A stretch of DNA of 64,000 bases. Origin: Patescibacteria group bacterium (GTDB lineage Bacteria > Patescibacteriota > Doudnabacteria > UBA920). The position numbers and the translations under genes were made by a program. Of the stretch, positions 17,944-47,417 are shown piece after piece (position 1 is the stretch's first letter; each line of letters opens with the position of its first letter). The stretch covers positions 2,544-66,543 of the forward strand of contig JAMDAY010000028.1 in NCBI GenBank assembly GCA_023484515.1, written 5' to 3'. A model generated the notes under the pieces. It was not told the origin of the DNA, made no database searches, and saw nothing but the letters and a program-made list of their open reading frames with translations.

Positions 17944-17947
17944 GATT

Positions 17948-18120: not shown

Positions 18121-18132
18121 ATCTGCTCATAT

Positions 18133-19158: not shown

Positions 19159-19177
19159 CCTGACGCAATAAAGGGGG

Positions 19178-20560
19178 TTGGCCAAGATTGATCATAACGC
19201 CCATAACATGCTTATGCAATATTTAAAAAAAATCATTCCCGAAAAGATACTGAAATTTTTACGCCCCTTTTACCACGGAGCTTTGGCTTTGGCCGGGCAT
19301 TTTTATTTTGGCCGGCCGTCCCGCCGGTTAATTGTTATTGGCGTGACCGGCACAAACGGCAAGTCCACCACCGTAAATTTAATCGCGCAAATCTTGCAGG
19401 AAGCCGGTTATAAAACCGGCTATACGTCTACCGTCACCATGAATGTCAACGGGAAGGAATATCTCAATAAAATAAAAATGACCATGCCTTCGGGCTGGGT
19501 GCTGCAAAAGCATATGCGGCAAATGTTAAAGTCCGGCTGCCAATATGCGGTGCTGGAAGTGTCCAGCGAAGGCTTGGCGCAGAACCGGCATTTGGGAATA
19601 AATTTTGACGCGGCTGTCTTTACCAATTTGACTCCCGAGCACTTGGAATCCCACGGCGGGTTTGAAAATTATAAGCTGGCAAAAAGCAAGCTTTTTGCTT
19701 CGCTTATAATGAATAAGATGTCCGCAGAAAAACGCAGGATAAACCGCAAATTGGGGAAGGCAATAGTTTTTAACGCAGATGACCAATATGGGAAATATTA
19801 CGCCAGTTTTAAGTCAGACCTATGCCTGTCATACGGTGTAAAGAACCGGCAAGCGGATTTAATCGCATCTGATATCAAATATTCGCCTGATGGATTGGAA
19901 TTCATAATTCATAATTCCAAATTCATAATTCATTTAAAGGGCCAGTTTGACGTTTACAATTCCCTGGCAGCCATAGCGGCCGCACAATCACAAAACATCA
20001 GTCTGGAAATTTGCAGATCGGCCTTGGAAAAAATTCCGGTGGTGCCGGGCAGGATGGAAATAATTCAGGGCAGTCCGTTTACGGTGCTGGTGGACTACGC
20101 CTACGAGCCGGAAGAAATGCGGCAGCTTTACGAAACCGTTTCCCGCTGGCCGCATGGCCGCATTATCCAGGTCTTAGGGCCGACCGGCGGCGGGCGGGAC
20201 AAGGCAAGAATTTTTACTTTGGGGGAAATGGCGGGAAAATTCGCGTCCGAAGCAATTATTACCACGGACGACCCTTATGACGAAGACCCTAAGGCCCTAA
20301 GCCGGCCCATGGTTGAAGGCGCGGCCGCCGGGGGCAAAACGGAAGGCCAGAATTTATTTTGCGAATACGACCGCCGCCTGGCAATCCGTCTCGCGCTGCG
20401 GCGCGCGCAAGCCGGCGACCTGGTGTTAATTACCGGCAAGGGCGCGGACCAGAAAATGGCGCTGGCCGCGGGAACCTACGCGGACTGGGACGACAGGGGA
20501 GTGGCAAGGGAGGAACTTAAAGAGTTACAAGTTCATCAAGTTATCAAGTTTATCAAGTAA
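19178..20560 (+). CDS. Mur ligase family protein (MurE/MurF-like), lacking the usual N-terminal domain
   Basis: GVTGTNGKSTT P-loop. MurE-like C-terminus TTDDPYDEDP...DRRLAIRLAL...ITGKGADQK. Confidence 0.7.
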   Translation: MAKIDHNAHNMLMQYLKKIIPEKILKFLRPFYHGALALAGHFYFGRPSRRLIVIGVTGTNGKSTTVNLIAQILQEAGYKTGYTSTVTMNVNGKEYLNKIKMTMPSGWVLQKHMRQMLKSGCQYAVLEVSSEGLAQNRHLGINFDAAVFTNLTPEHLESHGGFENYKLAKSKLFASLIMNKMSAEKRRINRKLGKAIVFNADDQYGKYYASFKSDLCLSYGVKNRQADLIASDIKYSPDGLEFIIHNSKFIIHLKGQFDVYNSLAAIAAAQSQNISLEICRSALEKIPVVPGRMEIIQGSPFTVLVDYAYEPEEMRQLYETVSRWPHGRIIQVLGPTGGGRDKARIFTLGEMAGKFASEAIITTDDPYDEDPKALSRPMVEGAAAGGKTEGQNLFCEYDRRLAIRLALRRAQAGDLVLITGKGADQKMALAAGTYADWDDRGVAREELKELQVHQVIKFIK

Positions 20561-20573
20561 AAACAATCAAGTA
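20528..20573. repeat. left inverted-repeat arm of CAAGTT-unit repeats, overlapping the 3' end of the Mur ligase gene
   Basis: caagttcatcaagttatcaagtttatcaagtaaaaacaatcaagta. The reverse complement recurs at 20926-20962. Confidence 0.7.
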
Positions 20574-20574
20574 T

Positions 20575-20919
20575 ATGAAAATAGAAAGATTCGAGGATAT
20601 TATTTCTTGGCAGAAAGGTATTGACCTTGCTATTATTGTTTATGGTGTTCTAAAAAGTAATAGGGATTTAAGTTTTAAAGATCAAATCCAAAGGGCAGTG
20701 GTAAGTATTTCAAACAACATTGCGGAAGGGTATGAAAGAAAAAGCAATAAGGAACTTGCACAATTTTTATATATTGCCAAGGGTTCTGCTGGAGAAGTCA
20801 GGTCCATGGTCCATATGGCTTTGAGGTTAAAATACATTACCCCATCTCAATTTGACGATATCTATCAAAGATGTTTGGAAATTTGTCGGCTACTTTCAGG
20901 TTTTATAAAAACTTTATAG
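20575..20919 (+). CDS. four-helix-bundle protein (23S rRNA IVS-protein / Avd-like, TIGR02436-type)
   Basis: ...AVVSISNNIAEGYERKSNKELAQFLYIAKGSAGEVRS... matches the family signature. 114 aa. Confidence 0.75.
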   Translation: MKIERFEDIISWQKGIDLAIIVYGVLKSNRDLSFKDQIQRAVVSISNNIAEGYERKSNKELAQFLYIAKGSAGEVRSMVHMALRLKYITPSQFDDIYQRCLEICRLLSGFIKTL

Positions 20920-20925
20920 ATTAGA

Positions 20926-20962
20926 AACTTGATAAACTTGACGAACTTGAAACTTGATAACT
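20926..20962. repeat. right inverted-repeat arm (AACTTG units), reverse complement of 20528-20573
   Basis: aaacttgataaacttgacgaacttgaaacttgataac. Confidence 0.7.
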
Positions 20963-20965
20963 TTT

Positions 20966-21268
20966 ATGGTTTTATACATTGACACAACTGATTTTGGCAA
21001 GATAACGTTTGCCGCAACGGACGGGAAAAAATTGTGGAAAAAATCCTGCAAAATTGACCCGCATAAATCGCATGAGACTTTGGGATGTCTGGAAAAATTT
21101 TTCAAGGCAGGAAAGTTTAGCCGTAGTCAGGTCAAAAAAATTGTGGTCAACAAAGGGCCGGGCAGTTATACAGGAACCAGGATTGGGGTAACAATTGCCC
21201 AGGCTTTGGGTTTTGCCTGGGGCGTGCCGGTTAAGTTTTTGCCCAAGGACAAGATGCCTGCCTTGTAA
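20966..21268 (+). CDS. tsaB: TsaB (YeaZ)-like N-terminal fragment, truncated after ~100 aa
   Basis: MVLYIDTTDF...GPGSYTGTRIGVTIAQALGFAWGVPV matches the TsaB N-domain. The ORF stops early and repeat-rich DNA follows. Confidence 0.55.
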   Translation: MVLYIDTTDFGKITFAATDGKKLWKKSCKIDPHKSHETLGCLEKFFKAGKFSRSQVKKIVVNKGPGSYTGTRIGVTIAQALGFAWGVPVKFLPKDKMPAL

Positions 21269-21428
21269 GGGAAGACTGGTGGTAACGGCTGCTTTGGCAA
21301 AATGCCAAGGCAGCTTTTTATGACGCGGATATTAACGCTGATCTTCTACGCCGATCCATCGCGAATCTAATAACCATAAGGAATGGGAAAGACGAAAACG
21401 TACTTCCGGGATAGAGTCAGTGATGACG

Positions 21429-21526
21429 CACATCTGGGATAATCTTGTTTAAGTTTGGTTGATGATGATTATTATCAGGTAATCTAAAGACCGCTTATCC
21501 CAGATGTGCGTCATCACCCAAAACAT
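21429..21526. repeat. perfect 23-bp inverted repeat gtgatgacgcacatctgggataa / ttatcccagatgtgcgtcatcac with a 52-nt loop
   Basis: Read directly from the sequence. Non-coding. Confidence 0.8.
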
Positions 21527-21719
21527 CTGTCTCCTTTGAACACCACAACACGTGTTGTGGTGTTCCCGCCATATAGGCCAGGCGGGTCTGTAGTTGCCTG
21601 ATTCATCAGGCTCTTTGCAAAGCTGAGTGAACTAAGCGACTACAGCTTAAGGGGGCAAGGCTTAAGGTTTATTGGAGGTTTTTTAAGGTTCTTTTCCCTA
21701 TGGCATTGCGTCCCCTTGG

Positions 21720-21889
21720 TGTCATTGCGAGGCACGTCGCTCGCGAACGACGTGCCGAGGAGCCAGGGCTTTAACTGGGCCGCGAAGCAATCTATCATAA
21801 GCACAAGAAAAAGATTGCTTCGCTCGGATGCACTCGCGATGACACGCGGGATAGATTGCTTCGCTCGGATGCACTCGCTCGCAATGACA
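21720..21889. mobile_element. MITE-like element with TGTCATTGCGAG terminal inverted repeats (copy 1, 170 bp)
   Basis: TIR tgtcattgcgag at 21720 and ctcgcaatgaca at 21878. The internal blocks agggctttaactgggccgcgaagcaatct and ttgcttcgctcggatgcactcg are shared with the copy at 40425-40662. Confidence 0.65.
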
Positions 21890-21989
21890 CCGCGCTTTAT
21901 GCCAGTAATGACACCGCATTTTGCATGCCCATTGCAAGCCAGGTACCAGGCGGCACTGTGGCAAGGGGAGTTAATTACAAATTATCCTT

Positions 21990-22046
21990 TGTAGGGGCTG
22001 CCCTTTGGGCGCCCGAACTTGCGGGCAGCTAAAGCTTGCCCCTACA
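21990..22046. repeat. REP-like GTAG-headed palindrome (intergenic copy)
   Basis: tgtaggggctgccctttgggcgcccgaacttgcgggcagctaaagcttgcccctaca. Confidence 0.8.
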
Positions 22047-22170
22047 TTCTTTATGGGTTTGTTGCCTGCTTTAGGGGGCAAGGTTTCCAAGTGTTCCGGT
22101 GTAACATTAAAATATGCGGAATAAGCAGCTTAATGAATTGGGCAACTGCAAGCTTAAGGAGGCTTTGCGC

Positions 22171-22206
22171 CTGTCCTTGTAGGGACAGGTCTAGACCTGT
22201 CCTTAC
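22171..22206. repeat. partial REP-like element containing the tgtaggg head and the gacaggtctagacctgtcc palindrome
   Basis: The same inner palindrome occurs in the valS-embedded copy at 48074-48131. Confidence 0.6.
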
Positions 22207-22665
22207 GTCCTTGACATCAATGACCAGCTTGGCAATGGCTTTATCCGGGACATTCTTGGGCCTGTTCCTACTGTCCGTGATATCTGTGATCAGTGATCTG
22301 CGCCTTGAACCGAAGACCTTCAGGCCAGCTGGAACAGAGGGTTTATCCGTAATCCGTGTTTATCTGTCTGCCTTGATCCGTGTTAATCTGTTTGCAGTCT
22401 AACACCGGTTTAGCCTTGACAAATGGCTGTTTTTTTGCTAATATATATATAGAAAAAGTATCGGATAGCCAATAGGCAATAGGCAAGCCAAAACTAGCTT
22501 GCTTAAACAAGCCTAAATAGGCTAGAGTGAAACAAAAAACTACAGAATATATGCGGATTAATACGCTGATTTAACGCTGAAAAATTACGGCGCGAATCAG
22601 TGTAAATTGGATATTTATATTCTATAGTAGTTAAAGAAACAAATATCAAATAACAATTTAATCCC

Positions 22666-22908
22666 TTGTCTTCCCAAGAACAGTTGTCAATGCTGACTTC
22701 GGGCAAGCTGATTTCCATCAGCCAGGCCGCGACTTTAACTCCGTATAGTGCGGAGTATTTGAGTTTATTGGCCCGCAAGGGGAGACTGAATGCGATAAAA
22801 ATTTCCCGCGACTGGCTGACTACGGAAGAGGCGGTTAAAAATTACGTGGCCAAGCAGGTCAAGAAGCACGAAAAAATGCTCAAGATGCTGGAAGGAGGAA
22901 AAATATGA
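22666..22908 (+). CDS. excisionase-like helix-turn-helix DNA-binding protein (paralog A)
   Basis: TPYSAEYLSLLARKGRLNAIKISRDWLTTEEAVKNYVAKQVKKHEKML is nearly identical to the 31916-32146 product. HTH_17-like pattern. Its stop overlaps the start of the giant gene (ATGA). Confidence 0.6.
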   Translation: MSSQEQLSMLTSGKLISISQAATLTPYSAEYLSLLARKGRLNAIKISRDWLTTEEAVKNYVAKQVKKHEKMLKMLEGGKI

Positions 22909-25900
22909 AATCCTTCCTGCAAAAAATTGGGAATGCCTTGGGGTTAAGGCAGCAGCCCGTGGTGATTAACGCGAAGTTTATTACTCCCCAAAGCCTGAAA
23001 GAAAATTCCAAACCGGCAGCTCCGGCCTTTGCGGCTGCGCCCCGCGTCCCGGAGTCCCGGATCCCGGACAAAAACAAAACTGCGCCGCTTGCCCGCCAAA
23101 CCGCCAAGAGCGCGCCTATGGCCAAATGGATCGGAAAAATTCCCAGGCCGAAATTCGTTTTGGCCGTGCCCAAGCCGCACCGCGCTTTGGCAGTTGTGCT
23201 GGCCAAAACGTCAGTCGTTCCGTTTAAGCTGCCGCAGTTGCCCGCGCCCCTAAAAAACAAAATGCTGGCTAAATTGCCTAACCGCGTTTTGGCGGGTTTG
23301 GCTGTGCTGCTGTTTGCCTTAAGCATGTCCTTGTGGGGCGCGGCCAAAGAGATACAGATAAAGCATGCGGTTCCCGCAGGGGTCAACTCCGGAATCCTGA
23401 AATCTTTGTCGTTCAGTATCCCTAATAATTTTTCAAACAACGGGCATTCAGGCAGCTCTGTTTCAGCGGCTGGCCAGCGCATTTATCAGCGCCCATTTGG
23501 CAAATACGAAAATTTGCCGGCCAAAGAAAAAGCAGTATTTTATCCAAGCAACGACAACCTTCATTTGCTGTCGTTGTTTACCGGCGGCATTGGCAACTGG
23601 TTCGGATATTTTGGAGGATTGCGGGCAGAGTATGCGCCGTATAAATACGCAGCGCAAAATAATTCAAAAGGCGAAGCGGTTAGCCGCCATGCGGATTTAG
23701 TAAAAGGCAGGGATTCTGAATTTGTTGGCCAGGCGGGCGGGGCCCCTAAGCTGCCAGTTGGGACAATAAATTTTTCAGCCAGGCTGCAAGCGGTTAAAAT
23801 TTCCGCCCGCACGCTGGCTTTGGTTTGGACGGATTTTCTGTTCCGCCATCCGGCCATAAATTTTGCAAGCCTGCAAAGCGCGGCCCAAAATTGGAAGACG
23901 GACATTAGCCGGTCGCTTAAGACAGGCGTTGCCGCTTTTGCCGGCGTGGGCAAATCGGACGCGCAAATTTGGGGGCAAGCTTTAACCTGGCAAATAAGCG
24001 TCCGGAAAAATTTGCCGGAAGCGGCAGACAGCCAACGCGTTGCCAGCCAGGATACAATTGCACGTTATTTTGTAACATTGCAAAACTTTAACTTAAAGGC
24101 GAAGCAGTCTTTTGCTGAAATAAAGACTGCCGCGGTTTCATATTTTAAAGTTAAAGATATTAATTTCCGCAATGACGCGGCAAGCGGCCGCGTCCAAAAG
24201 GGAGAAGTCTTGGGCGCGGTAGACTATCCCGCCGGCCAGGAATCAAAATTTATAAAAATTTTCACCAATGGAGTAGGGGAGTGGTTTAAAATTTTGCCCG
24301 ATGTAAAATATTCGGAGGCTAATCAACAGCAAAAAGCCGGCAAAGGCATGGTGCTGGGCTTGTCGTCCGCCAAGGAGAACAATTCTTCTACCGTGGGCAG
24401 TATTTCCTTAAATCGGCTGGCGCAAAAGAGCTTGCAAGGACTTAATAATGCGGCAGCCTGGGAAACAAGGCAGTTGGTAAAGTTGGCAAATTTTGGAAAA
24501 GTCGCAGCCAAAGGGGTGGGAAAAGTTTGGGGGCAGGTTGCCGGCGCGGGAAAAGGCGCCTGGAACCGCGCGGTGGCAACGGCAGGACATATTTTGCAGA
24601 CCGGCAGCGAAGAAAATGTTTTGCCTTTAATTACGCATGACAAGTTTGGGCAAATGGTGGGGAACAATGGGCCGGCAGGCAATGGCGAAGCCGCGAACTT
24701 AAATTCCCAAACGCCGCAAACCGGTCCAGAGGCCGGGCATTCGGCAGCCGCCATTTCCCAACCGGCAGGCGCGCCCAACGCGGGCAGCGGCAGGCCGGCG
24801 TCTGCAGCCGTTTTAACGGCCGTTGACCCCATGTTTGTTAACCGGCTAATTGACGCGCGGCTTAACCAGTATTTGGCCGAAGGCAAATTTAAAGGCGAAA
24901 AGGGCGAAAAAGGAGACAAGGGAGACAAGGGGGACACCGGCTTAATTACTAACCCCGCAACCAACCAGTCTTCCGCGGTTGTGGGCGGCTATCCCATTGT
25001 CACTTATGTTCCTCCGGTTCCCGCCCAGGGATTTGCCGGCACTTCTTTGGCGGGCTTTGGCAATTTGTCCGCTGCAATTTTGTCAGTCTCTGACCAGACA
25101 AGCTTAAACAATCTTACTGTTACCGGCAATGTCAGTTTGGCTACCACGACCGTTACCAGTTTGACTATTGCCAGGATAAATCCGCAATTCACCGCCGGCT
25201 CTGTTGTTTTTCAAGGATCTTCCGGCCTGGCCCAGGACAACAGCAACTTCTTTTACGATGAAACTAACCATAGATTGGGAATTGGCACCAGCACTCCGTT
25301 AACCGTGTTGGAAATTGACGCTACGGACGCTTTGCGCATTCCGGTGGGCAACACCGCGCAGAGGCCGGCCGTGGCTTTAACCGGCCAAATCCGCTATAAC
25401 CTGACCACGCACCAGTTTGAGGGTTACGGCAACAATAGCGTCTGGCAGGGTTTGGGCGGGGTTATTGATGCCGACCAGGACACTTACATTACGGCGGACA
25501 CGAGCAATGCCGACGAAGATACCTTGCGCCTGTTCACTTTGGGCAACGAGCGCTTGACCGTGACCAGCGCCGGCAATGTTGGCATTGGCACGACCACGCC
25601 GGGCTATGCCTTAACCGTGGTTGGCGACGGTTACTTTACGGGCAATGTTAACATTGGCCAAAACTTGACCGTAAATGACGGGGCGGTAATCATTGGCAGC
25701 GCTACCACGACCAGCCTGACCGTAAATGCGGCCATTGCTTCCAATTTAATTCCCGATGGCAACAATACCAGAAGCTTGGGGAGCGCTTCCTATTTCTGGA
25801 GCGATTTATACGTGGGCGAGTTGCATGCCAACTTGATTTCCGACGCCTCTTCCACTTTAAGCGGCACGCTTTCCGACAGCTTTACCATTAACAGCGACAA

Positions 25901-28900
25901 TGCCAGCGCCGATGCCGAAAACGCGGATTTAATCTTCTTCCGCGGCGCCTCCGGGGCAGACCCTAACGCCTTAATTTCCTGGAATTCTACAGCCAAGCGC
26001 TTTGACTTAAACCAGCCAACTTTTATCCAGAACGCCTCGCCTTCCACCACAACCATTCCAACTTTGCTGCTTCAAGGCTCTGTCAGCCAAACCGCGGATA
26101 TTTTCCTCGCAGCCTCTTCCTCCGGCACTTCCTTGTTTAATATCACTTCCTCCGGCAACGTCGGGATAGGGACGACGGCACCAAGCCAGTTGTTGACGGT
26201 TGGTAATAACAATCAGTTTACGGTTAGTAGTTCTGGTGCAGTTGTGGCCGCTGGGCAGATTCAAGCCAATTCACTTTATACTCTCGGAAATGTGTATGGG
26301 TACGGTTTCCAAAGTGTTAATGGACCCTCGCAATCTTACATTGACATGACAAGTTATAGTAAAGCTATAGCATTTTCAGCCAGTTCCACAGAGGTAATGA
26401 GGTTAACAGGAAACGGCAATATCGGCATCGGCACCACATCGCCAGCGAACAAGCTAACGGTGGTTGATGCGGATACAACCTCCCCGGCGGGGATAGGTTC
26501 GATTAAGCTTACCCAGAATATTTCAAATCCTTACGAATTATTTATGGGTGTCAACAGCACCTATGACAACAACGAAGGAAACGGAGCCGCGTATATACAG
26601 GCGCAGCATTCGGGGGTGAATGTTTCCGGTCTGCTGCTTAACCCGAACGGAGGCCGCGTGGGCATTGGGGTGCTTCATCCTCAATCCGCGTTGGATGTCA
26701 ATGGCGGAATGAGTATTGGTTCTTACGCCGGAACCAACACGGCTCCATCGAATGGATTAATAGTAAGCGGCAATGTGGGCATCGGGACAACAAGTCCGGC
26801 GGCGAAGTTGGATGTCGTTACTTCCAGTAATAATGAAATGAGGTTTTTGGACCAGATGACCTATGGTACTGCAAGCAGCAGCAATGCCACCGGATTGTTT
26901 CTGACCACTCCAACTTATAATAACGGCGGCGGACCGTCTATTGCTTTCGGCCGCGGCACAGGAATCAATGCTACGGAAATGTGGGAGACCGGCATAGACT
27001 ATCGCGGCGGCGGCAATTTGTGGAGCGGCGGCGGAGCGGGCGCATATATTTTAGCCTATCAATGGGAACCCAACGGCCAGTCGGCGGACCGCATCGCCGT
27101 CAAACCTTACGGCCAAACTTCTATTGGTCTGCCGGATGCCGGCTTGAGCCAGTTTACTGCCCAGTTAGAAATTAGAAATCAAATAGCTAGTTTGCCAGTG
27201 GAGATTCTTTACCCCAATTTGACCCAAAGCGGCGATGTCTGGCAGGTACGCACTACGAACAATGGTTCGTCGGCCATTTCTATACCTTCCGGCGCTGTGG
27301 ACGCTTCCAACGCTAACGCTATCGTTCCAATTTTAAGATTAATGCATCCCTCCGCTGCTAGCGGCGTCGGTAATGGCGCAGCCATTGATTTTGTCGCCTC
27401 TTCCGATGGCACGACCATTGGATCAGAAATCGCCGGGACGCGCGCGGCTTCAGGGGGCTGGGGTAACTTGCAGTTTTTGACTCGCAACGGTTCGGGTCTT
27501 TTGGAACGCATGAGGATAGATAATAACGGCAACGTCGGGATTGGGACAACAGGTCCCACATCGGCATTAGAGGTTACGTCTGGCTCTGGAAATGCTTCTG
27601 TAAAATTAAGTTCAAATGCTTATGGCGGAGTAATAAGTACTGCCTCGGGCAGCAATAGCGGATACTTGTATCTAACGCCAGTCGGACGGGTGGTTAGCTT
27701 GTACGATAATACCAACGCTTATAAATTGAATATTTATAACGGCAGTAATGCTGAGTTTTCGTTTGATTCAAACGGCAATAGCTGGTTAAACGCAACCACC
27801 GGCAACGTGGGCATCGGGACGACGAGTCCTGGGGCAAAGTTGCATGTATATGGGACAGATTATACCGGTGCCATTTTTCAAAACACCAATCCTGCCAATT
27901 TTGGGTATAACCAGTTTACTAACGCTGGTGCGGCCACTTCGTATCAATACTGGTTTGGTAATACGTATAGTTCTGCAACGAATAGGTATGTTCCATCATC
28001 ATTCTTGCTCGACGCAGCAGGGACAGGCGGTTTAGGTTTGGCCGCTTCAAATGCTTCTGGGGCTATTCGCTTTTATACTGGTGGGGATAATGAAAGGGTC
28101 AGGATAGATAATAACGGCAACGTCGGGATTGGGACGACGAGCCCAAGCACTAAGTTAGAAGTTTGGGATGGCAATGATGGTTCTGGCGGAGTTATTACTG
28201 CCAAGGACGGCGGAGCTATATTAATGGCCGCTGATAGTAGCTATCCGTTGCAAGTTGGAAATAACACCGGAGGCGCCAATAATATTAGATTCCGTATCGG
28301 ATCGGATGGCACTATTGATTGGAACAACAATAACAGTGCTATTCCCACGATAACTTTGCCGACAAACAAATATCTGGCAGTATCGGGTGGAAATGGAATG
28401 ACAATAGCTGGCAACGTCGGAATTGGGACGATAAATCCGGCGGAATTGCTTGATGTGGCAGGTAACATCCGGCTGACAAACTTTAGGACCCATAATGTTA
28501 CCAGGACTTTAAGTTCTGCTATTAACGGGGTGGTAGATATTGGCACCTTCAACTTCACGTTGGGCGCGGGGGAGTTGGACGTAACCATAGTCACGCAAGG
28601 CACAGGCTACTCTATTGCTAAAACTTACAGAATCCCGGTCAGATATGATGCTACAAGCAATGCTTGGAAAATTGTATTGCCTAATTACGATTCCGGAGTA
28701 TATTCTGGAAATAATTTCCAACTGGAGGTTAAAGTCGGCACTACGAATGCCTCTTTGCGTATTCGCTCGTTGACTGCCAATTCAGCGACCGCTTATATTA
28801 CCATCCAGCAAAATGGCTTGAATAGCGACAGTTTTACCGAATCCACAGCCACTTCCACCGAGGCGGCTATTACCCAGACTTATACTTACACCCCGGTTGC

Positions 28901-30632
28901 ATTTTATAACGGTAATCTGGGAGTGCAAGTTGCCGCGCCAGATGCTGAATTGCAGGTAAATTCAATGCCTGTAAACAAGGGTTCTTATTCATTGTCAAAC
29001 TGGAACAGTACCGGCTCCAGAGCCGCTGCGTTTTTTGCCACGCCGAATAACAACGGGGGCAACAGCTTGGCCAGCGCGGAACCGGCTTTGATCTTGGGCA
29101 GGGAGGGTGTAACAGGCCAATCTTATGCCAATTTTGCGGAATTTAAACTGGCACATTACGAAGTTTCGGGCACAGACGCCCGTACCAGGATGGATATTGC
29201 TTTGACACACGGAGCGGGCGATGCAGCCGGAACTAACGTTATGAGCTTGCTAAGCAACGGCAACGTCGGGATTGGCACTACCTCTCCTTCCCAAAAGCTG
29301 GATGTCTGGGGCAATTTGAACGTCGCTACGTCAACTACGCCTGCATTGTTTGTGAACACAGCCACGGGAATGGTGGGAATTGGAACCGCGACGCCTGGGC
29401 ATCTTATTACACTTTCCGGCGGCGCTTATAGCGACGGCGCGACTTGGGAAAACGCTTCGGACGTAAACTTAAAGGAAAACTTTATTGACCTTGACCCGGC
29501 GGAAATTTTAACCAAGATAAATTCCTTAAAAGTCAGCCAGTGGAATTATAAGACGGACAAGAGCATCTCCTATATTGGCCCGACCGCCCAGGACTTTTAT
29601 TCCACATTTAACGCCTTGCGCCCCAGCAGCTCGCCGACCTCCATTTCCACGGTGGACCCGGCAGGCGTTGCATTGTTGGGAATACAGGCTTTGGACAATA
29701 AATTCAACAATTTACAATTGACGATCAGTAATTTACAGGGAAGCCTGATGAATCAGGCAACTACGACTAATCTTGCTGTTTATAACCCTTCCAACTTCTC
29801 GGGCGACAGCGTGGGCCAGGCCAAAATTTTGTCCGGCGCGACCAGCACTTTGGTTTCCTTCCAAAACGCCTACCAATACCAGCCCATAGTTACCCTAACT
29901 CCGGCCGGCCCTTACACCGCCCGCTACTGGGTGGAAAACGCCAACGCAAACGGCTTTACCGTAGTTTTGGAACACGCGGAAGAATACGACGTTACCTTTA
30001 ACTGGCATTCGTTTGCCAGCCCCGAAGCGAAATTAACGGTCAGCGACGGCACCACGCTGGACATTGTTTTGGTTTTGCCGCCGGCCGACCCGCCGCCTCC
30101 GGCCGCGCCTTTGGTGGTGCAGCCTGCGGCGGGGGACGCTACAGGCGGCTCTGCCGGTAGCAATCTTACAGACACTAATCCTCCTGCCGGAGGCGCAGAT
30201 GGTTCTTCCGGCGACAACCTTTCTCCGGACGACTCTTCTAACAACAGCCTTTCCGGCGACAACCTTCCCGCAGGGGATCTCTCAGGAAATACTTCCGGCA
30301 ATAATCCTCCCGCAGACAGCCTTTCCGGCGGTAATCTTACAGACATTAATCCTCCGGCAGGGGATGGAACAGGGGAAGGCGATCCGTCCGCTGATGGGTC
30401 TGCTTCTTCCGGCCAGCAAGGCCAGGTTTCCGGCGCAACCACAATTTCGGGCGATTCCACTTCGGCAAGCACTGAAACTGCATCCGGCGGCGACAGTTCT
30501 GCCGCCGGCAGCGATTCGTTGTCCGGCAGCGGTTCGGGCCCTACAGATACCTCTGCCGGTGTAGATGCCTCCACCGGCGCCACAGACGCATCCGCCGGCA
30601 CTACGGACGCCTCTTCCGGAAGTACACCGTAA
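22905..30632 (+). CDS. giant cell-surface tail-fibre-like protein: TM anchor, collagen-like GEKGEKGDKGDKGDTG, ~11 NVGIGTT repeats, Peptidase-S74 intramolecular chaperone domain, P/S/G/D-rich tail
   Basis: GGAGG RBS upstream. Repeated GNVGIGTTSP..KL.V units. The C-terminal SDVNLKENFIDLDPAEIL...YIGPTAQDF matches the S74 autoprocessing-domain motifs (SDxxLKxNI, GxxAQ). Confidence 0.85.
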   Translation: MKSFLQKIGNALGLRQQPVVINAKFITPQSLKENSKPAAPAFAAAPRVPESRIPDKNKTAPLARQTAKSAPMAKWIGKIPRPKFVLAVPKPHRALAVVLAKTSVVPFKLPQLPAPLKNKMLAKLPNRVLAGLAVLLFALSMSLWGAAKEIQIKHAVPAGVNSGILKSLSFSIPNNFSNNGHSGSSVSAAGQRIYQRPFGKYENLPAKEKAVFYPSNDNLHLLSLFTGGIGNWFGYFGGLRAEYAPYKYAAQNNSKGEAVSRHADLVKGRDSEFVGQAGGAPKLPVGTINFSARLQAVKISARTLALVWTDFLFRHPAINFASLQSAAQNWKTDISRSLKTGVAAFAGVGKSDAQIWGQALTWQISVRKNLPEAADSQRVASQDTIARYFVTLQNFNLKAKQSFAEIKTAAVSYFKVKDINFRNDAASGRVQKGEVLGAVDYPAGQESKFIKIFTNGVGEWFKILPDVKYSEANQQQKAGKGMVLGLSSAKENNSSTVGSISLNRLAQKSLQGLNNAAAWETRQLVKLANFGKVAAKGVGKVWGQVAGAGKGAWNRAVATAGHILQTGSEENVLPLITHDKFGQMVGNNGPAGNGEAANLNSQTPQTGPEAGHSAAAISQPAGAPNAGSGRPASAAVLTAVDPMFVNRLIDARLNQYLAEGKFKGEKGEKGDKGDKGDTGLITNPATNQSSAVVGGYPIVTYVPPVPAQGFAGTSLAGFGNLSAAILSVSDQTSLNNLTVTGNVSLATTTVTSLTIARINPQFTAGSVVFQGSSGLAQDNSNFFYDETNHRLGIGTSTPLTVLEIDATDALRIPVGNTAQRPAVALTGQIRYNLTTHQFEGYGNNSVWQGLGGVIDADQDTYITADTSNADEDTLRLFTLGNERLTVTSAGNVGIGTTTPGYALTVVGDGYFTGNVNIGQNLTVNDGAVIIGSATTTSLTVNAAIASNLIPDGNNTRSLGSASYFWSDLYVGELHANLISDASSTLSGTLSDSFTINSDNASADAENADLIFFRGASGADPNALISWNSTAKRFDLNQPTFIQNASPSTTTIPTLLLQGSVSQTADIFLAASSSGTSLFNITSSGNVGIGTTAPSQLLTVGNNNQFTVSSSGAVVAAGQIQANSLYTLGNVYGYGFQSVNGPSQSYIDMTSYSKAIAFSASSTEVMRLTGNGNIGIGTTSPANKLTVVDADTTSPAGIGSIKLTQNISNPYELFMGVNSTYDNNEGNGAAYIQAQHSGVNVSGLLLNPNGGRVGIGVLHPQSALDVNGGMSIGSYAGTNTAPSNGLIVSGNVGIGTTSPAAKLDVVTSSNNEMRFLDQMTYGTASSSNATGLFLTTPTYNNGGGPSIAFGRGTGINATEMWETGIDYRGGGNLWSGGGAGAYILAYQWEPNGQSADRIAVKPYGQTSIGLPDAGLSQFTAQLEIRNQIASLPVEILYPNLTQSGDVWQVRTTNNGSSAISIPSGAVDASNANAIVPILRLMHPSAASGVGNGAAIDFVASSDGTTIGSEIAGTRAASGGWGNLQFLTRNGSGLLERMRIDNNGNVGIGTTGPTSALEVTSGSGNASVKLSSNAYGGVISTASGSNSGYLYLTPVGRVVSLYDNTNAYKLNIYNGSNAEFSFDSNGNSWLNATTGNVGIGTTSPGAKLHVYGTDYTGAIFQNTNPANFGYNQFTNAGAATSYQYWFGNTYSSATNRYVPSSFLLDAAGTGGLGLAASNASGAIRFYTGGDNERVRIDNNGNVGIGTTSPSTKLEVWDGNDGSGGVITAKDGGAILMAADSSYPLQVGNNTGGANNIRFRIGSDGTIDWNNNNSAIPTITLPTNKYLAVSGGNGMTIAGNVGIGTINPAELLDVAGNIRLTNFRTHNVTRTLSSAINGVVDIGTFNFTLGAGELDVTIVTQGTGYSIAKTYRIPVRYDATSNAWKIVLPNYDSGVYSGNNFQLEVKVGTTNASLRIRSLTANSATAYITIQQNGLNSDSFTESTATSTEAAITQTYTYTPVAFYNGNLGVQVAAPDAELQVNSMPVNKGSYSLSNWNSTGSRAAAFFATPNNNGGNSLASAEPALILGREGVTGQSYANFAEFKLAHYEVSGTDARTRMDIALTHGAGDAAGTNVMSLLSNGNVGIGTTSPSQKLDVWGNLNVATSTTPALFVNTATGMVGIGTATPGHLITLSGGAYSDGATWENASDVNLKENFIDLDPAEILTKINSLKVSQWNYKTDKSISYIGPTAQDFYSTFNALRPSSSPTSISTVDPAGVALLGIQALDNKFNNLQLTISNLQGSLMNQATTTNLAVYNPSNFSGDSVGQAKILSGATSTLVSFQNAYQYQPIVTLTPAGPYTARYWVENANANGFTVVLEHAEEYDVTFNWHSFASPEAKLTVSDGTTLDIVLVLPPADPPPPAAPLVVQPAAGDATGGSAGSNLTDTNPPAGGADGSSGDNLSPDDSSNNSLSGDNLPAGDLSGNTSGNNPPADSLSGGNLTDINPPAGDGTGEGDPSADGSASSGQQGQVSGATTISGDSTSASTETASGGDSSAAGSDSLSGSGSGPTDTSAGVDASTGATDASAGTTDASSGSTP

Positions 30633-30715
30633 GAAATAGGACATATAAGACAAATAAGACAAATAGGACATATAAGACCTATAGGACTAATAGGACTAAT
30701 AAAACCAATAAATTT
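30633..30715. repeat. 9-bp minisatellite (ATAGGACAA / ATAAGACAA units) upstream of the 208-aa Avd-like gene
   Basis: Tandem units read directly. Translates to SYL/SYM runs on the minus strand. Confidence 0.8.
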
Positions 30716-31342
30716 ATGACAGAATTAATCGCCAAGCACGGCGGCTACAAAAACTTAAAATCTTTCCAGGCGGCGGAAATTGTTTACGACTACACCTTTG
30801 AATTCATTAACCGCTATGTCCAATTTTACAAAGACAAGGAGCAAATGGAAGGCGCGGCGCGCGGCGGCAAGCAGAACATCGGCGAAGGCAGCCAGACCGG
30901 CGGCACCTCCAGGCAAAGCGAAATTAGGCTGACAGATGTCGCCCGCGCCTCGCTGGAAGAACTGAAGCTGGATTACGAAGATTTTTTGCGCAAACAAAGC
31001 CTGCCGCAATGGGGCAAAAACGACCCGCGCGCGCTAGCCGTGCGCAAGCTGGCATACGAAAAGAATAGGACATATGGGACTTATAGGACATATATGTCAG
31101 AGCCAGAAACAGCGGCCAACTGCGCCTTGTGCTTAATTAACCAGGCAACTTATTTACTGGACAAACAACTGGCGGCGTTAGACAAGCAGTTAGGGCGGGA
31201 GGAGGACTTTAAAGAGCGTTACAGGCAAGTCCGCAAGGAACAAATATTCGGAGCAAAAGACGACTATGATGAATTTTTAAAGCAGTTTGGCAAGAAACGG
31301 CTGGAAAACGGGAGGGTGGTGCCGCTGGATGCGCCGGATTGA
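30716..31342 (+). CDS. extended four-helix-bundle (Avd-like) family protein
   Basis: QNIGEGSQ...VARASLEELKLDYEDFL parallels the NIAEGxxR...IAKGSxxEL motifs of TIGR02436. Repeat units also lie inside the ORF at 31060-31095 (RTYGTYRTYM). Confidence 0.45.
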   Translation: MTELIAKHGGYKNLKSFQAAEIVYDYTFEFINRYVQFYKDKEQMEGAARGGKQNIGEGSQTGGTSRQSEIRLTDVARASLEELKLDYEDFLRKQSLPQWGKNDPRALAVRKLAYEKNRTYGTYRTYMSEPETAANCALCLINQATYLLDKQLAALDKQLGREEDFKERYRQVRKEQIFGAKDDYDEFLKQFGKKRLENGRVVPLDAPD

Positions 31343-31560
31343 ACAAGGTGAATAGGACAAATAGGACGCATAGGACAGATAGGGCAGAGGGGCAAGGCCT
31401 ATGCGACCAGTAAGACGAATAGGACGTATAAGAACAATAAGACAAATAGGACATATAGGACATATAAGACAAATAGGACAAATAGGACAAATAGGACATA
31501 TAAGTCCTATAAGACCTATAAGTCCTATAAAGACCTATAACCTATAAAACCAAAACAGCC
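31343..31560. repeat. 9-bp minisatellite array, forward units then inverted units (self-palindromic)
   Basis: ataggacaa... followed by gtcctataagacctataagtcctat. Confidence 0.8.
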
Positions 31561-31915: not shown

Positions 31916-32146
31916 ATGGCCTCCCCTAACTTACAATTAATTTCCGGCGCGCTTATCTCCATGCATCAGGCAGCAAAAATGACCCCGTATTCGGCGGAGT
32001 ATTTAAGCTTGCTCGCGCGCAAGGGGAGGCTAAAGGCGGTAAAAATCGGCAGGGACTGGCTGACCAATGAAGAGGCAATTAAGGAATACGTGCAAAAGCA
32101 GGTCAAAAAGCACGAAAAAATGCTGGCGGCATTGGGAAAACTATAA
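31916..32146 (+). CDS. excisionase-like helix-turn-helix DNA-binding protein (paralog B)
   Basis: TPYSAEYLSLLARKGRLKAVKIGRDWLTNEEAIKEYVQKQVKKHEKML. Paralog of 22666-22908. Confidence 0.6.
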   Translation: MASPNLQLISGALISMHQAAKMTPYSAEYLSLLARKGRLKAVKIGRDWLTNEEAIKEYVQKQVKKHEKMLAALGKL

Positions 32147-32149
32147 AAA

Positions 32150-32197
32150 ACGGATTTACACGGATACCGTCAAACGGATGCTCACGGATCACGGATA
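32150..32197. repeat. array of 5 ACGGAT hexamers (left flank of the GxxExxY cassette)
   Basis: cggatttacacggataccgtcaaacggatgctcacggatcacggata. Confidence 0.75.
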
Positions 32198-32217
32198 AAA
32201 TACATATGTAAAAATAT

Positions 32218-32654
32218 ATGGACAGTAAAGAAAAAGGGAAATTATTAGAAGAAGGATTGTGTTCAAATATTATTCGGGCGTTTTATGATGTTGCAAATAA
32301 ATATGGCAGCGGTTTAAAGGAAATTGTTTACCAAAAAGCCTTGGTTGAAATTTTGGAAAAAATGGGGCTAAAAACTGAACAGCAAAAAAGATAAGCATTT
32401 ATTCCCTTGATTCAGGGAAAACACTGGGAACATATGTGCCGGATTTAATAGTAGAAGGCAAGGTTGTTGTAGAAATTAAGGCTACCGATTATACAATTGG
32501 CCGCAATATTAATCAACAAAGGTCTTATTTAAAAGCCAGTAAGTATGAAATTGGATACCTGGTAAACTTTGGAACCCCTAGATTATTTTTTAAGAGATCA
32601 ATTTATACCAACGACCGCAAACCGTTTATTATATTATTAACCAATCATCCGTGA
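32218..32654 (+). pseudogene. GxxExxY-family protein gene split by a frameshift in an A6 run (32384-32389)
   Basis: The N-terminal ORF 32218-32394 contains GLKEIVY. The C-terminal ORF has DLIVEGKVVVEIKA...YLVNFG. Adding one A restores a single ~145-aa ORF. Confidence 0.55.
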
Positions 32655-32693
32655 TCCGTGGAAATCCGTAAGCAGTATCCGTGTTTATCCGTT
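32646..32693. repeat. array of 5 ATCCGT hexamers (right flank, inverted relative to 32150-32197)
   Basis: catccgtgatccgtggaaatccgtaagcagtatccgtgtttatccgttt. Confidence 0.75.
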
Positions 32694-33935
32694 TAAATAT
32701 GTCATTTATCGCCAGAAACAAATTCCTAAACAAATATTTGCCCTTAATTCTTTCCGCCATATTGCTTGTTACCGCGTATGGGGCTTATTTTGTCGCACAA
32801 AAATCCAAAACCGCAGAGTCTGCCTGGTTTACTTCTTCTTCCACTGCCGGTACCTGGAACTACCGGCAAAGAATTGTCATTGACCACACCAAGGTCGGGT
32901 AATCGTTAAAACAAAATTTAACCGATTTTCCGGTTTTGGTTTCCACGACCAATGTGCTGTTTAAGTCCGTAAACAACGGGGGACATGTGGGGTTAGACAG
33001 CGGCTACGACATTGTCTTTACCTCCGCGGACGGCGCCACCAAACTAGCGCACGAAATAGAAAAATACGACCCCGCAACCGGCCAGCTAATTGCCTGGGTT
33101 AAAACCAATTTATCTTCGTCTTCCGACACCGTCTTGTATCTTTACTACGGCAACTCTTCCGCCCCCGACATGCAAACCGTAGATCCGGTTAAGACTGCGG
33201 TCTGGGACAGCAACTATAAAGGCGTCTGGCATCTTGGAGAAACCGGCAGGGGCATCAGGCGATTATAAAGACAGCACAACAAATAATAGTAATAGCATCA
33301 GTACTGCTAGCCAGCCTTCCGCGGCTGCCGGCAAAATAGGTAACGCGCAAAATTTTAACAATTCCTACATCCAATTTGACGGTTCAGGCTCCTTAAATAT
33401 TTATTCCAGCCCCATAACCATTGAGGCCTGGATTAAGCCGACAACGCTTGACGCCACGCTTAGGGCGGTAGTTGATAAAGGGAGTGCTACTTATTTAATG
33501 GGGGTCTCCAGTTATCCAAGCACGGGCCATGCCAATACTTTCAGTATTAGCGGAAGCGGGGGGAGTGGTAATTATGTCGCACCTCAAAATTCTATAAGTA
33601 CGGGGGTATGGTATCATTTAGTTGTACAAGGTATAAATAATCCAAAATGGTATGCCAACGGAGCGTATTTAGGGTACTACGATACCCTTATGACCTTGAT
33701 TTCTAATACCGATGTTCTTTCCATTGGCGATAACTCCTTGCATACCCGCAAGTTTAGCGGATTAATTGAGGAAGTCCGCATTTCCAACATAGCCCGCACC
33801 CCCGAATGGATTAAAACCGAATACAACAACCAGTCCGCGCCCTCTGCTTTTTACGCGATTTCCGCGTCCAACGCTTCCTCCCGCCCCGCTGACAAGCCCC
33901 TCATCAAAACCCGCTCCGGCGTGAAGTTCCGCTAA
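32681..33935 (+). pseudogene. DUF2341 + LamG/concanavalin-like surface protein gene, disrupted by an in-frame TAA (32903) and a frameshift (~33240)
   Basis: Signal/TM present. WNYRQRIVIDHTKVG*...FPVLVSTT...DIVFTSADG...YYGN...VWHL matches DUF2341. The third ORF has GKIGNAQNFNNSYIQFDGS...EAWIKP (LamG). Confidence 0.55.
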
Positions 33936-33948
33936 TGAAAACAAAAAA

Positions 33949-33985
33949 CAATGGGCACCATTGTGCTGCACAATGGTGCCCATTG
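33949..33985. repeat. REP hairpin caatgggcaccattgtg-ctg-cacaatggtgcccattg, immediately upstream of RAYT-1
   Basis: 17-bp perfect arms. Confidence 0.8.
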
Positions 33986-33998
33986 TAACCAGCTTAAT

Positions 33999-34652
33999 AT
34001 GAATAACCGGGATTATAAATTTTTTGCGCCCAATACAATCCATCATGTATACAACCGCGGAAATGGTAAAATGGATATTTTTAGGGACGGACAGGATTTT
34101 GCAAATCTGATTAAAAGAATAGCTTTAACTTTAGGCAAGGCGAAAGAGACCGCAACGGTGCCCATTGGCTGCCAATGGGCACCGTTGCGTATTGCGCCTT
34201 TTCCAAAGAACGCTTTTACCATACTGTGTTATTGCCTTATGCCTAACCATTTTCACTTCCTTATCAGGCAGAATACTGAAATTGCGATAAGTGATTTTAT
34301 TTCAAAACTTTGCAGTAGCTATGGTAAATTTTTTAATAAAAAATACGAACACGCTGGCGGCTTGTTCCAAGATCAGTTTAAAGCTGTGCGCGTTGAAAAT
34401 GATTCCCAGTTACTGTGGGCATCCGCCTACATCCACAACAACCCCAAAACCGCCGGACTTGTCCAAAAGTTGGAAGATTATGCCTGGAGCAGTTATTTGG
34501 ATTATATCGGCAAGCGGCAGGGAACTTTGTGCGACAAGGAATTTATTTTAAAGATGATCGGCGGCGCGGAAAAGTATAAAAGATTTACGGAAGGCGGCTT
34601 TGAAAAAATCAAGGGGAGAAAAGAATTGGAACATTTGCTGCTGGATAATTAA
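33999..34652 (+). CDS. REP-associated tyrosine transposase (RAYT, IS200/Y1 HuH family), copy 1
   Basis: HHVYNRGN and YCLMPNHFHFLI (HuH) motifs. The start was chosen at MNNRDYK by alignment to copy 2. An internal REP hairpin at 34151-34189 is translated as TATVPIGCQWAPLRIAP. Confidence 0.8.
   Translation: MNNRDYKFFAPNTIHHVYNRGNGKMDIFRDGQDFANLIKRIALTLGKAKETATVPIGCQWAPLRIAPFPKNAFTILCYCLMPNHFHFLIRQNTEIAISDFISKLCSSYGKFFNKKYEHAGGLFQDQFKAVRVENDSQLLWASAYIHNNPKTAGLVQKLEDYAWSSYLDYIGKRQGTLCDKEFILKMIGGAEKYKRFTEGGFEKIKGRKELEHLLLDN
34151..34189. repeat. REP hairpin cgcaacggtgcccattgg-ctg-ccaatgggcaccgttgcg, inside the RAYT-1 ORF
   Basis: 18-bp perfect arms. Shares the ggtgcccattg core with the upstream hairpin. 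Confidence 0.8.
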
Positions 34653-35431: not shown

Positions 35432-35610
35432 ACGATTTTAGGGTTTTTCTAAAATTAAAAACCTGTAAATTATTCTAATTTTTAATTGACCTAATTATTT
35501 TAAACAATATCCAATTCCTAATTCCCAATATCCAACTACTGCAGTTCATTGGGAATTGGATATTGGGTATTGGAAATTATTTAGGGTACTTAGGAATTAG
35601 GTTAATTTTG

Positions 35611-46713: not shown

Positions 46714-47390
46714 AATATAGAGATTACAAGGTGTTTGCACCGGGAGGATATTATCATGTATATAATCGCGGTGTAGCTAAAACTGATATCTTTTTAGACG
46801 ATGACGACCGCAAATTTTTTCTATTTCGCCTTAAAGAATATTTGTTTCCCTTGAAGGGTCTCTTCAAGGGAAAAAGGCAGAATTTACCTGGAGGGGCGGC
46901 AATTGTGGCCGAAACCCATACCCCTTATAAAAGAAAAATGTTGCCTCCAGACAGTTTTTCCTTGCTTTGTTATTGCCTTATGCCTAACCACTTCCATTTT
47001 CTTATTAGGCAGGAAGGTGTGTTGGAGGTCCGGAAGCTGTTGGCTAAAGTTTGCACCAGTTATTCTAAATTTTTTAACCAAAAATATGGAAGAGTTGGAA
47101 GCTTATTTCAGGATGCCTTTAAAGCCATTTCTGTAGAAAATGATCCGCAACTCCTTTGGGTTTCATCATACATCCATAATAATCCAAAAACAGCTAACCT
47201 TGTCGATAACCTAACTGATTATCCTTGGAGCAGCTATTTGGATTATATCGGCAAGCGGCAGGGAACTTTGTGCGACAAGGAATTTATTTTAAAGATGATC
47301 GGGGGCGCGGAAAAGTATAAAAGATTTGCGGAAGACAGCTTTGCGAAAATAAAGGAAAGGAAAGATTGTGAAGGATTATTTTTAGATTAA
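46710..47390 (+). CDS. REP-associated tyrosine transposase (RAYT), copy 2
   Basis: YHVYNRG and YCLMPNHFHFLI motifs. The 3' ~100 bp are about 95% identical in DNA to RAYT-1. An internal REP copy at 46848-46870 encodes LFPLKGLFKGK. Confidence 0.8.
   Translation: MKYRDYKVFAPGGYYHVYNRGVAKTDIFLDDDDRKFFLFRLKEYLFPLKGLFKGKRQNLPGGAAIVAETHTPYKRKMLPPDSFSLLCYCLMPNHFHFLIRQEGVLEVRKLLAKVCTSYSKFFNQKYGRVGSLFQDAFKAISVENDPQLLWVSSYIHNNPKTANLVDNLTDYPWSSYLDYIGKRQGTLCDKEFILKMIGGAEKYKRFAEDSFAKIKERKDCEGLFLD
46848..46870. repeat. REP hairpin cccttgaagggtctcttcaaggg inside the RAYT-2 ORF
   Basis: Same arms as the flanking copies. Confidence 0.8.
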
Positions 47391-47392
47391 AT

Positions 47393-47417
47393 CCCCTTGA
47401 AGGGTCTCTTCAAGGGG
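47393..47417. repeat. REP hairpin ccccttgaagggtctcttcaagggg (downstream flank of RAYT-2, inverted loop relative to the upstream copy)
   Basis: Loop gggtctct versus agagaccc upstream. Confidence 0.8.

Follow-up and report, generated by a model that had tools for sequence, protein, structure and literature searches.

The stretch of DNA analysed here (64,000 nucleotides, referred to as the window; Patescibacteria group bacterium, assembly GCA_023484515.1, contig JAMDAY010000028.1, positions 2,544 to 66,543 of the forward strand) carries at positions 32150-32693 a split gene of the GxxExxY family that is enclosed by two inverted arrays of the hexamer ACGGAT. The locus is an ordinary, decaying member of a widespread and almost undescribed class of cassettes, in which a small open reading frame (ORF) of the intervening sequence (IVS) type lies between inverted arrays of short repeat units. 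In this class the two arms are complementary and covary, and the same anatomy is found across the candidate phyla radiation (CPR) and in other phyla. Orthologous operon junctions show cassettes gained or lost at the level of the DNA, arrays have been duplicated together with the ORF, and the cargos frequently decay. By analogy with the IVSs of rRNA, we think it rather probable that the window locus is a decaying IVS-type cassette that is transcribed by read-through of its operon and whose arms form an RNase III-type stem.

Structure of the cassette

The left arm (32147-32196, forward strand) consists of five ACGGAT units that start at 32150, 32160, 32174, 32184 and 32191, with AAA in front, and it begins 1 base past the stop codon of the upstream gene. 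The right arm (32647-32695, forward strand) holds five ATCCGT units (starts at 32647, 32654, 32664, 32677 and 32687) with TTT behind; it covers the last codons and the stop codon of the cargo and finishes 3 nt ahead of the ATG of the next gene (32699). The cassette therefore makes up the entire intergenic spacer. The gaps between the units (32150-32196 and 32647-32692) are 4, 8, 4 and 1 nt on the left and 1, 4, 7 and 4 nt on the right, that is, the arms are mirrored. A previous reading of this DNA from its sequence only (the sequence-only reading) had described five copies on the left and five inverted copies on the right, which the coordinates and the mirrored gaps bear out.

On both strands of the window there are 32 ACGGAT sites (23 expected from shuffles). 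As 10 of the 32 are packed in these two 47-nt stretches, clustering by chance is excluded; by our own arithmetic from the window density, the Poisson expectation for five copies per 47 nt is ~1e-12 per position. When 32130-32715 was folded with RNAfold, the array stem closed the cassette in both the minimum free energy and the centroid structures (z = -4.0), and the duplex energy of the two arms is -72 kcal/mol compared with -25 for shuffles. No direct repeat or target-site duplication was seen at the cassette edges. A sigma-70-type promoter was not found between the left arm and the ATG, CPR promoters being poorly known, and the absence of a promoter-like site would agree with a promoterless cargo.

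Identity of the cargo gene

Judged by their sequence, the two ORFs of the cargo are halves of one GxxExxY / PD-(D/E)xK gene parted by a single-base frameshift. The N-terminal fragment (ORF1; 32218-32394, forward strand, frame 1) encodes 58 aa, includes the motif GLKEIVY and ends with ...EQQKR followed by TAA. The C-terminal part (32392-32654, forward strand, frame 0) reads ISIYS...PDLIVEGKVVVEIKA...YLVNFG...TNHP, carries the PD...ExK motif and stops at a TGA (32652-32654) inside the right arm. Frame 0 is open from 32377 to this TGA, and the ORF listing starts the C-terminal ORF (72 aa) at GTG 32436. In place of one uninterrupted GxxExxY frame the locus thus presents ORFs of 58 and 72 aa in frames 1 and 0.

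If the A6 run at 32384-32389 is extended by one A, an ORF of 145 aa results. The fused protein matches the GxxExxY model TIGR04256 with 101 bits (cut-off 35) over nearly its full length (positions 3-115 of 116) and PF13366 (PDDEXK_3) with 98.4 bits (cut-off 22), so the proposal in the sequence-only reading that the frame 1 and frame 0 ORFs form one GxxExxY gene is confirmed. Both GLKEIVY and PDLIVEGKVVVEIK are present in the repaired protein. E35, D76, E86 and K88 are invariant columns across 33 aligned sequences, and the family-invariant columns are all intact (30 of 30), the PD...ExK residues included. The AlphaFold2 model of the repaired protein (pLDDT 82) has a Cas4/RecB-like nuclease fold.

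A search of 5.8 billion proteins gave 320 relatives, the best being 72% identical. Where a source is named among the matches listed, the label is Patescibacteria, and the 120 listed proteins have lengths of 122-188 aa. There was no match to the protein in a sequence search of the PDB or among the PADLOC defence models, and no homologue was found in phage records.

Position and cause of the frameshift

The frameshift had been placed in the A6 run by the sequence-only reading, a position that family conservation does not favour. The split region within 32380-32395 reads AAAAAAGATAAG, and ORF1 ends with Q-Q-K-R-stop (CAA AAA AGA TAA), where the first base of the arginine codon is the last A of the run. 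At this junction the aligned relatives read E-Q-Q-K-R-I-N-I-Y-S, and the position following this K holds R in 31 of the 32 sequences and K in none, whereas an A added to the run (32384-32389, forward strand) fuses the frames and gives K there. Since the conserved arginine is still encoded by ORF1, the reading frame is correct through AGA, which ends beyond the run, and therefore the lesion is likelier to lie past the run, with one A lost from AGA ATA AGC (32391/32392). The likelier site of this loss is AGATAA (32389-32394, forward strand), for which family conservation would give an ancestral AGA ATA A... (R I ...). We regard the loss of an A at 32391/32392, and not a change from A7 to A6, as most likely, which states a preference, short of proof. 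A full-length protein results from either repair (237.8 versus 236.0 bits on a profile of the relatives), and the 5.8 billion proteins contain no closer intact relative, none exceeding 72% identity, from which the ancestral state of this site could be read.

Of the three causes offered in the sequence-only reading (sequencing error, decay and phase variation), decay fits best. Separate assemblies of SRR10267473 and SRR10278331 yielded contigs that match the window with 100% identity over 5.6 and 2.3 kb, the split included, and with the window they amount to three assemblies that may sample one population, which makes them replicate sequencing and not independent lineages. All the aligned relatives are single ORFs (32 of 32). 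A split that the assemblies share and the relatives lack is the pattern expected of a recent, lineage-specific pseudogene. A uniform A6 together with the same split in relatives had been named as the outcome that would count against the sequence-only reading; the assemblies do agree on A6, but the relatives are without the split.

The downstream neighbour bears on the same question: a DUF2341 / Laminin_G_3 gene (32699-33935, forward strand) is broken by an in-frame TAA at 32900-32902 and by a frameshift near 33234-33268. Upstream, a profile match identifies a gene of 76 aa with a helix-turn-helix (HTH) domain, of the HTH_17 / excisionase-like type (31916-32146, forward strand). This HTH and DUF2341/LamG pair has an intact paralogous pair at 22666-30632, in which the HTH_17 paralogue (22666-22908) adjoins its downstream gene directly, with no cassette between them.

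That the frameshift is an error of sequencing or assembly in an intact gene is very improbable. It does involve a single base beside a homopolymer, and all other family-invariant residues are intact, but the SRR10267473 and SRR10278331 contigs are identical across the site, and the nonsense codon and frameshift in a second gene 250 bp off point to real local decay. Still harder to believe is that the split is functional, either as a phase-variable A6 tract or through programmed -1 ribosomal or transcriptional slippage that gives the full-length protein. AAAAAAG is a slippery string, and a -1 shift of tRNA-Lys on AAA before the rare AGA and the stop would lead into the full-length frame. However, the zero frame is CAA AAA AGA and not A AAA AAG, so that there is no in-frame X XXY YYZ site, and the 32 aligned relatives all lack the frameshift. 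The tract has no more than six bases and is identical in the three assemblies, the conserved arginine in the first frame puts the lesion probably after the run, and the adjacent gene is broken too. We conclude from the comparison of the sequences that the window gene is in all probability a genuine pseudogene of recent origin, in a region that is decaying locally, and that it should be annotated as such.

Arms of related loci

A scan of one genome per species yielded 49 loci encoding relatives with 36-70% identity (designated here by L numbers), of which 42 could be analysed. Most of the 49 are labelled CPR, namely Staskawicz-, Morani-, Falkow-, Doudna-, Roizman-, Gottesman- and Nealsonbacteria and "Saccharibacteria". 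Upstream (C)AC[GA][GA]AT units and downstream AT[CT][CT]GT(G) units were found in most of the 42, and with the strict pattern ACRRAT there are at least three units on both arms in 20 of them. Per kb of arm sequence, ACRRAT occurs 25.6 times in the correct orientation and 3.0 times in the wrong one, compared with 0.86 times per kb within the genes. The commonest layout, shared by both arms, has five units with gaps of 4, 5, 4 and 1 nt from outer to inner (starts 10, 11, 10 and 7 nt apart), and the outer-to-inner gaps of the window left arm recur in relatives as 4, 5-8, 4, 1. Typically, a few nucleotides separate the end of the right arm from the ATG of the following gene.

The duplexes between left and right arms have a mean energy of -46.5 kcal/mol over the 42 loci, against -27.1 for shuffles (Wilcoxon p = 2e-12). 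The variable purines of one arm covary with pyrimidines in the opposite arm: L005 and L028 have ACAGAT x5 and ATCTGT x5, L020 and L051 have ACGAAT and ATTCGT, and L025 resembles the window in having ACGGAT and ATCCGT. For the inner three units of nine aligned loci 96.7% of the cells pair, six pairs showing double changes, while slid controls give 18-42%. The units of an array are homogenised, since the variable dinucleotide is shared by 76% of units within one cassette versus 26% between cassettes.

Gain, loss and decay at operon junctions

Gain and loss are seen at one junction of a conserved secretion-type operon, between a gene whose product ends in ...PELLK (geneA) and a gene for a TraG/VirB4-like ATPase (geneB), which is found in several states across genomes. 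The spacer is empty and 18 nt long in L005, it holds a GxxExxY cassette in L012 and L020, and in L014 and L051 it holds a four-helix cassette with quite different units; in L023 a solitary left arm, 5 nt short of the ATG of geneB, is all that it contains. Presence and absence at orthologous sites is thus documented for the class, and not for the particular copy in the window.

Two cassettes of one Doudnabacteria contig, L023 and L026, lie 7.6 kb apart and have 485 nt in common, with 79.6% identity. This common stretch extends from the first left-arm unit to the last right-arm unit, and beyond it the sequences are unrelated; because the likeness is bounded by the outer edges of the arrays, the arrays travel with the ORF.

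Cargo decay is not restricted to the window copy. L023 is frameshifted, L051 is truncated by an internal deletion, and L042, L047 and L050 are partial. The cargo has the same orientation as its neighbours in 17 of 21 crude calls with both neighbours agreeing, which are noisy because of spurious ORFs and give a tendency only, and in four of four annotated plasmid cases (H1, H2, H5 and H6). This co-orientation and the lack of a promoter-like site before the ATG both fit read-through transcription.

Other cassettes in the window and in other phyla

The locus had been called the third small IVS-type cassette of the window, and two others are indeed present. The first (20536-20957) carries a four-helix gene that matches TIGR02436 with 109 bits; the gene has an ATCAAGT x4 array on one side and an ACTTGA(T) x4 array on the other, and the cassette is wedged between the end of an ORF (19178-20560) and the start of tsaB. 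The second (30625-31545) has 9-nt ATAGGACNN / ATAAGACNN arrays on both sides of an ORF with a four-helix domain and a suffix domain (30716-31342). Three ATAGGAC/ATGGGAC-type units lie inside this ORF (31065-31098), where they are translated as NRTYGTYRTY, and their pairing partner is an inverted GTCCTAT array at 31495-31528; as the four-helix domain of the ORF scores below the cut-off (18 versus 24 bits), this gene may be rearranged too.

A generic scan of the window and the fetched loci for inverted arrays of any hexamer recovered the cassette at 20536-20957 (TCAAGT units) and four others in the fetched loci, with units CTAATT, ATCAAA, CATAAC and AATTTC, and all their cargos are 23S_rRNA_IVP proteins (PF05635). 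Four-helix cargos between other arrays were found in L012, L014, L015 and L051. Arrays may also enclose nothing, as in L016, L022, L040 and L043 and at 50187-50261 of the window, where CGCTGAT x4 abuts ATCAGCG x3 directly upstream of a minus-strand gene (47726-50182). A further empty hairpin (35484-35607), an AATATCCAA / AATTCCTAA-type palindrome, is located between two minus-strand genes. The sequence-only reading had proposed a search for more ACGGAT-array cassettes; a metagenome scan with the exact five-unit ACGGAT left arm found them, mostly as empty hairpins of identical five-unit layout adjoining a start codon (L053, L055 and L059).

Plasmids of cultured bacteria extend the anatomy to other phyla. 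GxxExxY genes are flanked by inverted arrays of 11-nt units in Gemmatirosa and of CGCGAAG units between fabD and fabG in Sphingomonas, and by a single inverted repeat containing CACGGAT in Treponema. Inverted arrays also flank four-helix genes in Nostoc (GGGAAAA units), Riemerella and Geminocystis, and in Anabaena 90 (AGGTGAC units), where the gene lies between cas6 and cas4; 23S_rRNA_IVP genes inside cas operons have been reported (PMC3936711). Direct arrays on both sides were seen around GxxExxY genes in Prevotella, Persicobacter and Fusobacteria and around a four-helix gene in Gemmatirosa.

Some loci are composite. In L016 (2387-2945) an empty ACGGAT / ATCCGT hairpin stands directly before a GxxExxY ORF that has a right arm only, and in L011 (2300-3100) a GxxExxY cassette lies inside or beside a second array pair, TCAAGA / TCTTGA.

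In the window, two homologous hairpins of ~100 nt (17976-18073 and 21420-21517) share the loop motif GTT.GG.TGATGAT...TATC; their 21-bp stems differ by six compensatory double changes, and a seventh lies in a short inner helix. Rfam, with an E-value threshold over 17000-23000, gave no family for the two hairpins and chance miRNA-like matches only. The hairpin at 17976-18073 is enclosed by TACGGA x3 / TCCGTA arrays (17947-17969 and 18100-18118) and for this reason looks like a non-coding cassette cargo. The other lies in the tsaB region (20954-22400). The tsaB ORF ends after 104 aa, covering positions 1-88 of a 212-position model, and is followed by ~1.1 kb without a recognisable ORF, which contains ACGCNGAT-type units (21320-21370), the hairpin, repeats of the motifs cattgcgag / tcgcaatgac (21690-21910) and ATCCGT / ATCTGT arrays (22270-22400). 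Here tsaB may have been truncated by nested insertions.

Interpretation of the arrays

In the explanation that we favour, the cassette would be a ~550-bp unit, with one small ORF between two inverted CACGGAT-type arrays, that fills the spacer of co-oriented genes. The arms would pair into a long interrupted stem in the read-through transcript, and host RNase III would cut this stem as it does in the 23S rRNA IVSs of Coxiella and Leptospira. The insertion would in this way be removed or insulated at the RNA level and hence be tolerated inside operons. The frameshift of the window copy would be a recent, real one-base deletion that inactivated the cargo, which would appear to be dispensable once the cassette is in place. 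We infer pairing in vivo, cleavage by RNase III and any benefit to the host by analogy with the rRNA systems.

Several observations weigh against this explanation. A strand asymmetry of G-U pairs was not detected: pairing-compatible transitions number 152 in sense and 141 in antisense, the G-U counts within the unit cores (15 versus 12) carry no strand signature, and the sense and antisense duplex energies do not differ (p = 0.46). The complementarity therefore fits a constraint at the DNA level equally well. The ACRRAT units persist in relatives whose protein identity has dropped to 36-50%, a distance at which neutral sequence could no longer be recognised, and their starts follow one another at a phase of 10-11 nt, close to one turn of the helix; conservation and phasing together suggest a sequence-specific reader over a mere stem. 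Pairing cannot explain a solitary left arm that is located 5 nt before the VirB4-like ATG in L023 with neither cargo nor right arm (3546-3585 in PLYC01000007.1, Doudnabacteria). Over 40 nt this arm matches the left arm of L026 with 100% identity; the L026 cassette lies ~8.7 kb upstream on the same contig (~72.5 kb versus ~81.2 kb). Nor can pairing explain the direct arrays that replace inverted ones in about one third of the non-CPR examples. Finally, no rRNA was found in the window at Rfam gathering thresholds, which returned tRNAs and chance miRNA-like matches only, and the cassette is therefore not an IVS in the strict sense.

Many of these points would be expected if the cassette were a mobile element acting at the DNA level, with arrays that serve as subterminal protein-binding repeats like those at the ends of foldback, Ac/Ds or Tn7-type transposons. 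The GxxExxY nuclease would then recognise the phased CACRRAT units and cut the cassette ends, empty hairpins would be non-autonomous derivatives resembling miniature inverted-repeat transposable elements (MITEs), and the arms would be complementary because the two ends bind the same protein and not because their RNA pairs, although this is compatible with an RNA stem. Gain and loss at one junction, a duplicated unit bounded exactly by the outer array edges, the shared layout of the empty copies and a nuclease fold with an intact catalytic motif all agree with such an element, as do units that are conserved far past the needs of pairing with helical phasing, the missing G-U bias, and a CACGGAT core that also flanks a Treponema homologue of only 36% identity. 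On the other hand, the four-helix cargos are not nucleases and yet have equivalent arrays, and the unit is not cargo-specific, since the four-helix IVS of Coxiella has one of ACAGAT type, while the units of Gemmatirosa and Sphingomonas are wholly different. Near-identical copies in one genome are lacking (the best pair reaches 79.6%), no target-site duplication was seen, and a cargo mostly co-oriented with the operon is unexpected for a symmetric transposon unless it needs read-through transcription. We hold this explanation to be doubtful, if worth serious thought.

Another explanation would make the arrays host regulatory repeats, bound by an RNA- or DNA-binding factor and inverted only incidentally, comparable to the direct heptamer repeats that closely precede start codons in Beggiatoaceae, Cyanobacteria and Bacteroidetes. 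Homologues with a direct array on either side, the solo arm of L023 just ahead of the VirB4-like gene and right arms that end so close to the next ATG fit this explanation, and sets of TAACTGA repeats that end 1 nt before start codons have been described (PMC4679880). It is nevertheless improbable: unrelated units occur in one genome (ACGGAT, ATCAAGT, ATAGGAC and CGCTGAT), so that no single host factor fits, the arms covary and mirror each other's spacing, and the arrays were duplicated together with the cargo.

The RNA-stem explanation and the mobile element could also be combined. The array-flanked cassettes would then be one phylum-spanning family of mobile elements, with phased repeats read by the cargo (the GxxExxY nuclease or a pentameric four-helix protein) and precise insertion into operon spacers; the paired arms would render the insertion harmless at the RNA level, and the empty hairpins and the rRNA IVSs would be special cases. 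We consider such a unified scheme unlikely, and offer it as speculation.

Comparison with known systems

Repetitive extragenic palindromic (REP) elements and REPINs, which are associated with RAYT transposases, resemble the cassettes in being short palindromic intergenic elements, and two RAYT-like genes are present in the window. These are paralogues of IS200-type (Y1) transposases at 33951-34652 and 46710-47390, each with its own palindrome: an GGTGCCCATTG-type palindrome at 33948-33986 and 34151-34189 for the first, and an CCCTTGAAG-type palindrome at 46680-46705, 46846-46871 and 47392-47420 for the second. Since the palindromes stand at the 5' end and recur inside the ORF at the same relative position, a REP-like hairpin is translated within the transposase. 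Neither type is related to ACGGAT. A link of the cassettes with RAYT transposases was rejected, as the RAYT genes have their own palindromes and tblastn finds no RAYT in the 49 loci. Integron attC sites were likewise dropped, each cassette having two inverted arms of sub-repeats and the window no integrase, and so were CRISPR arrays, as there are no spacers and the window has no cas genes.

MITEs and foldback elements inserted in operons, such as the Correia elements of Neisseria and the ERIC elements of enterobacteria, have unique terminal inverted repeats, target-site duplications and many near-identical copies. The cassettes are like them in being palindromic insertions in operon spacers that occupy an orthologous site in some genomes and not in others, would fold into hairpins in the mRNA and have empty copies much like the filled ones. 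They differ in that their arms are arrays of 6-11-nt units, that no target duplication was seen and that the copies are divergent: the cassettes of the window all differ from one another, and the closest intragenomic pair does not surpass the 79.6% given above.

The short tandemly repeated repetitive (STRR) sequences and the TAACTGA direct repeats described in Beggiatoaceae and Cyanobacteria (PMC4679880) are sets of two to six heptamer units that occupy intergenic spacers and reach to within a few bases of a start codon, with a patchy distribution across phyla. The arrays around the four-helix genes of Anabaena 90 and Nostoc are of the same kind. However, these repeats are described as direct and with no link to a cargo, whereas the cassette arrays are inverted, covary and enclose an IVS-type ORF.

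The closest known relatives are the IVSs of 23S rRNA. In the Coxiella burnetii IVS an S23p (four-helix) ORF is preceded by two to three tandem GACAGAT and one GACAGAA, and RNase III cleaves the 28-bp terminal stem where the first repeat begins; the number of repeats differs between strains and the ORF is decaying (PMC4990558). The window cassette resembles the Coxiella and Leptospira IVSs in having a small IVS-type ORF between complementary stem-forming termini, as judged by the predicted folds and the duplex energy, and the heptamers of Coxiella contain the same ACAGAT core as the units of L005 and L028. Unlike them, it is inserted between protein-coding genes and not in a 23S rRNA helix, none of 40 related loci lies in rRNA, its cargo is a PD-(D/E)xK and not a four-helix protein, and its units are spaced (gaps 4, 8, 4, 1) instead of forming a near-perfect 28-bp stem.

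The GxxExxY family, its link to IVSs and scattered notes on heptamers are already known (PMC4990558, PMC4679880, PMC3936711). Among the papers listed for GxxExxY in our literature search none treats the flanks of the gene, heptamers being noted only for the Coxiella IVS, and we found no description of the package as a whole, in which short units form inverted and covarying arrays about an IVS-type ORF at an operon junction and empty counterparts exist. The practical consequence for the window locus is modest and concerns its annotation as a pseudogene. GxxExxY and four-helix "IVS" proteins are, however, among the commonest unexplained small bacterial genes, and the origin of the rRNA IVSs has been a question since the early 1990s. 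The window cassette and about sixty comparison loci indicate that IVS-type genes are usually packaged in short-repeat arrays and gained or lost at operon junctions. As empty packages exist and the Coxiella IVS has the same type of repeat, a vague annotation becomes a testable element with defined ends, and it is tempting to suggest that the rRNA IVSs represent one landing site of a much broader class.

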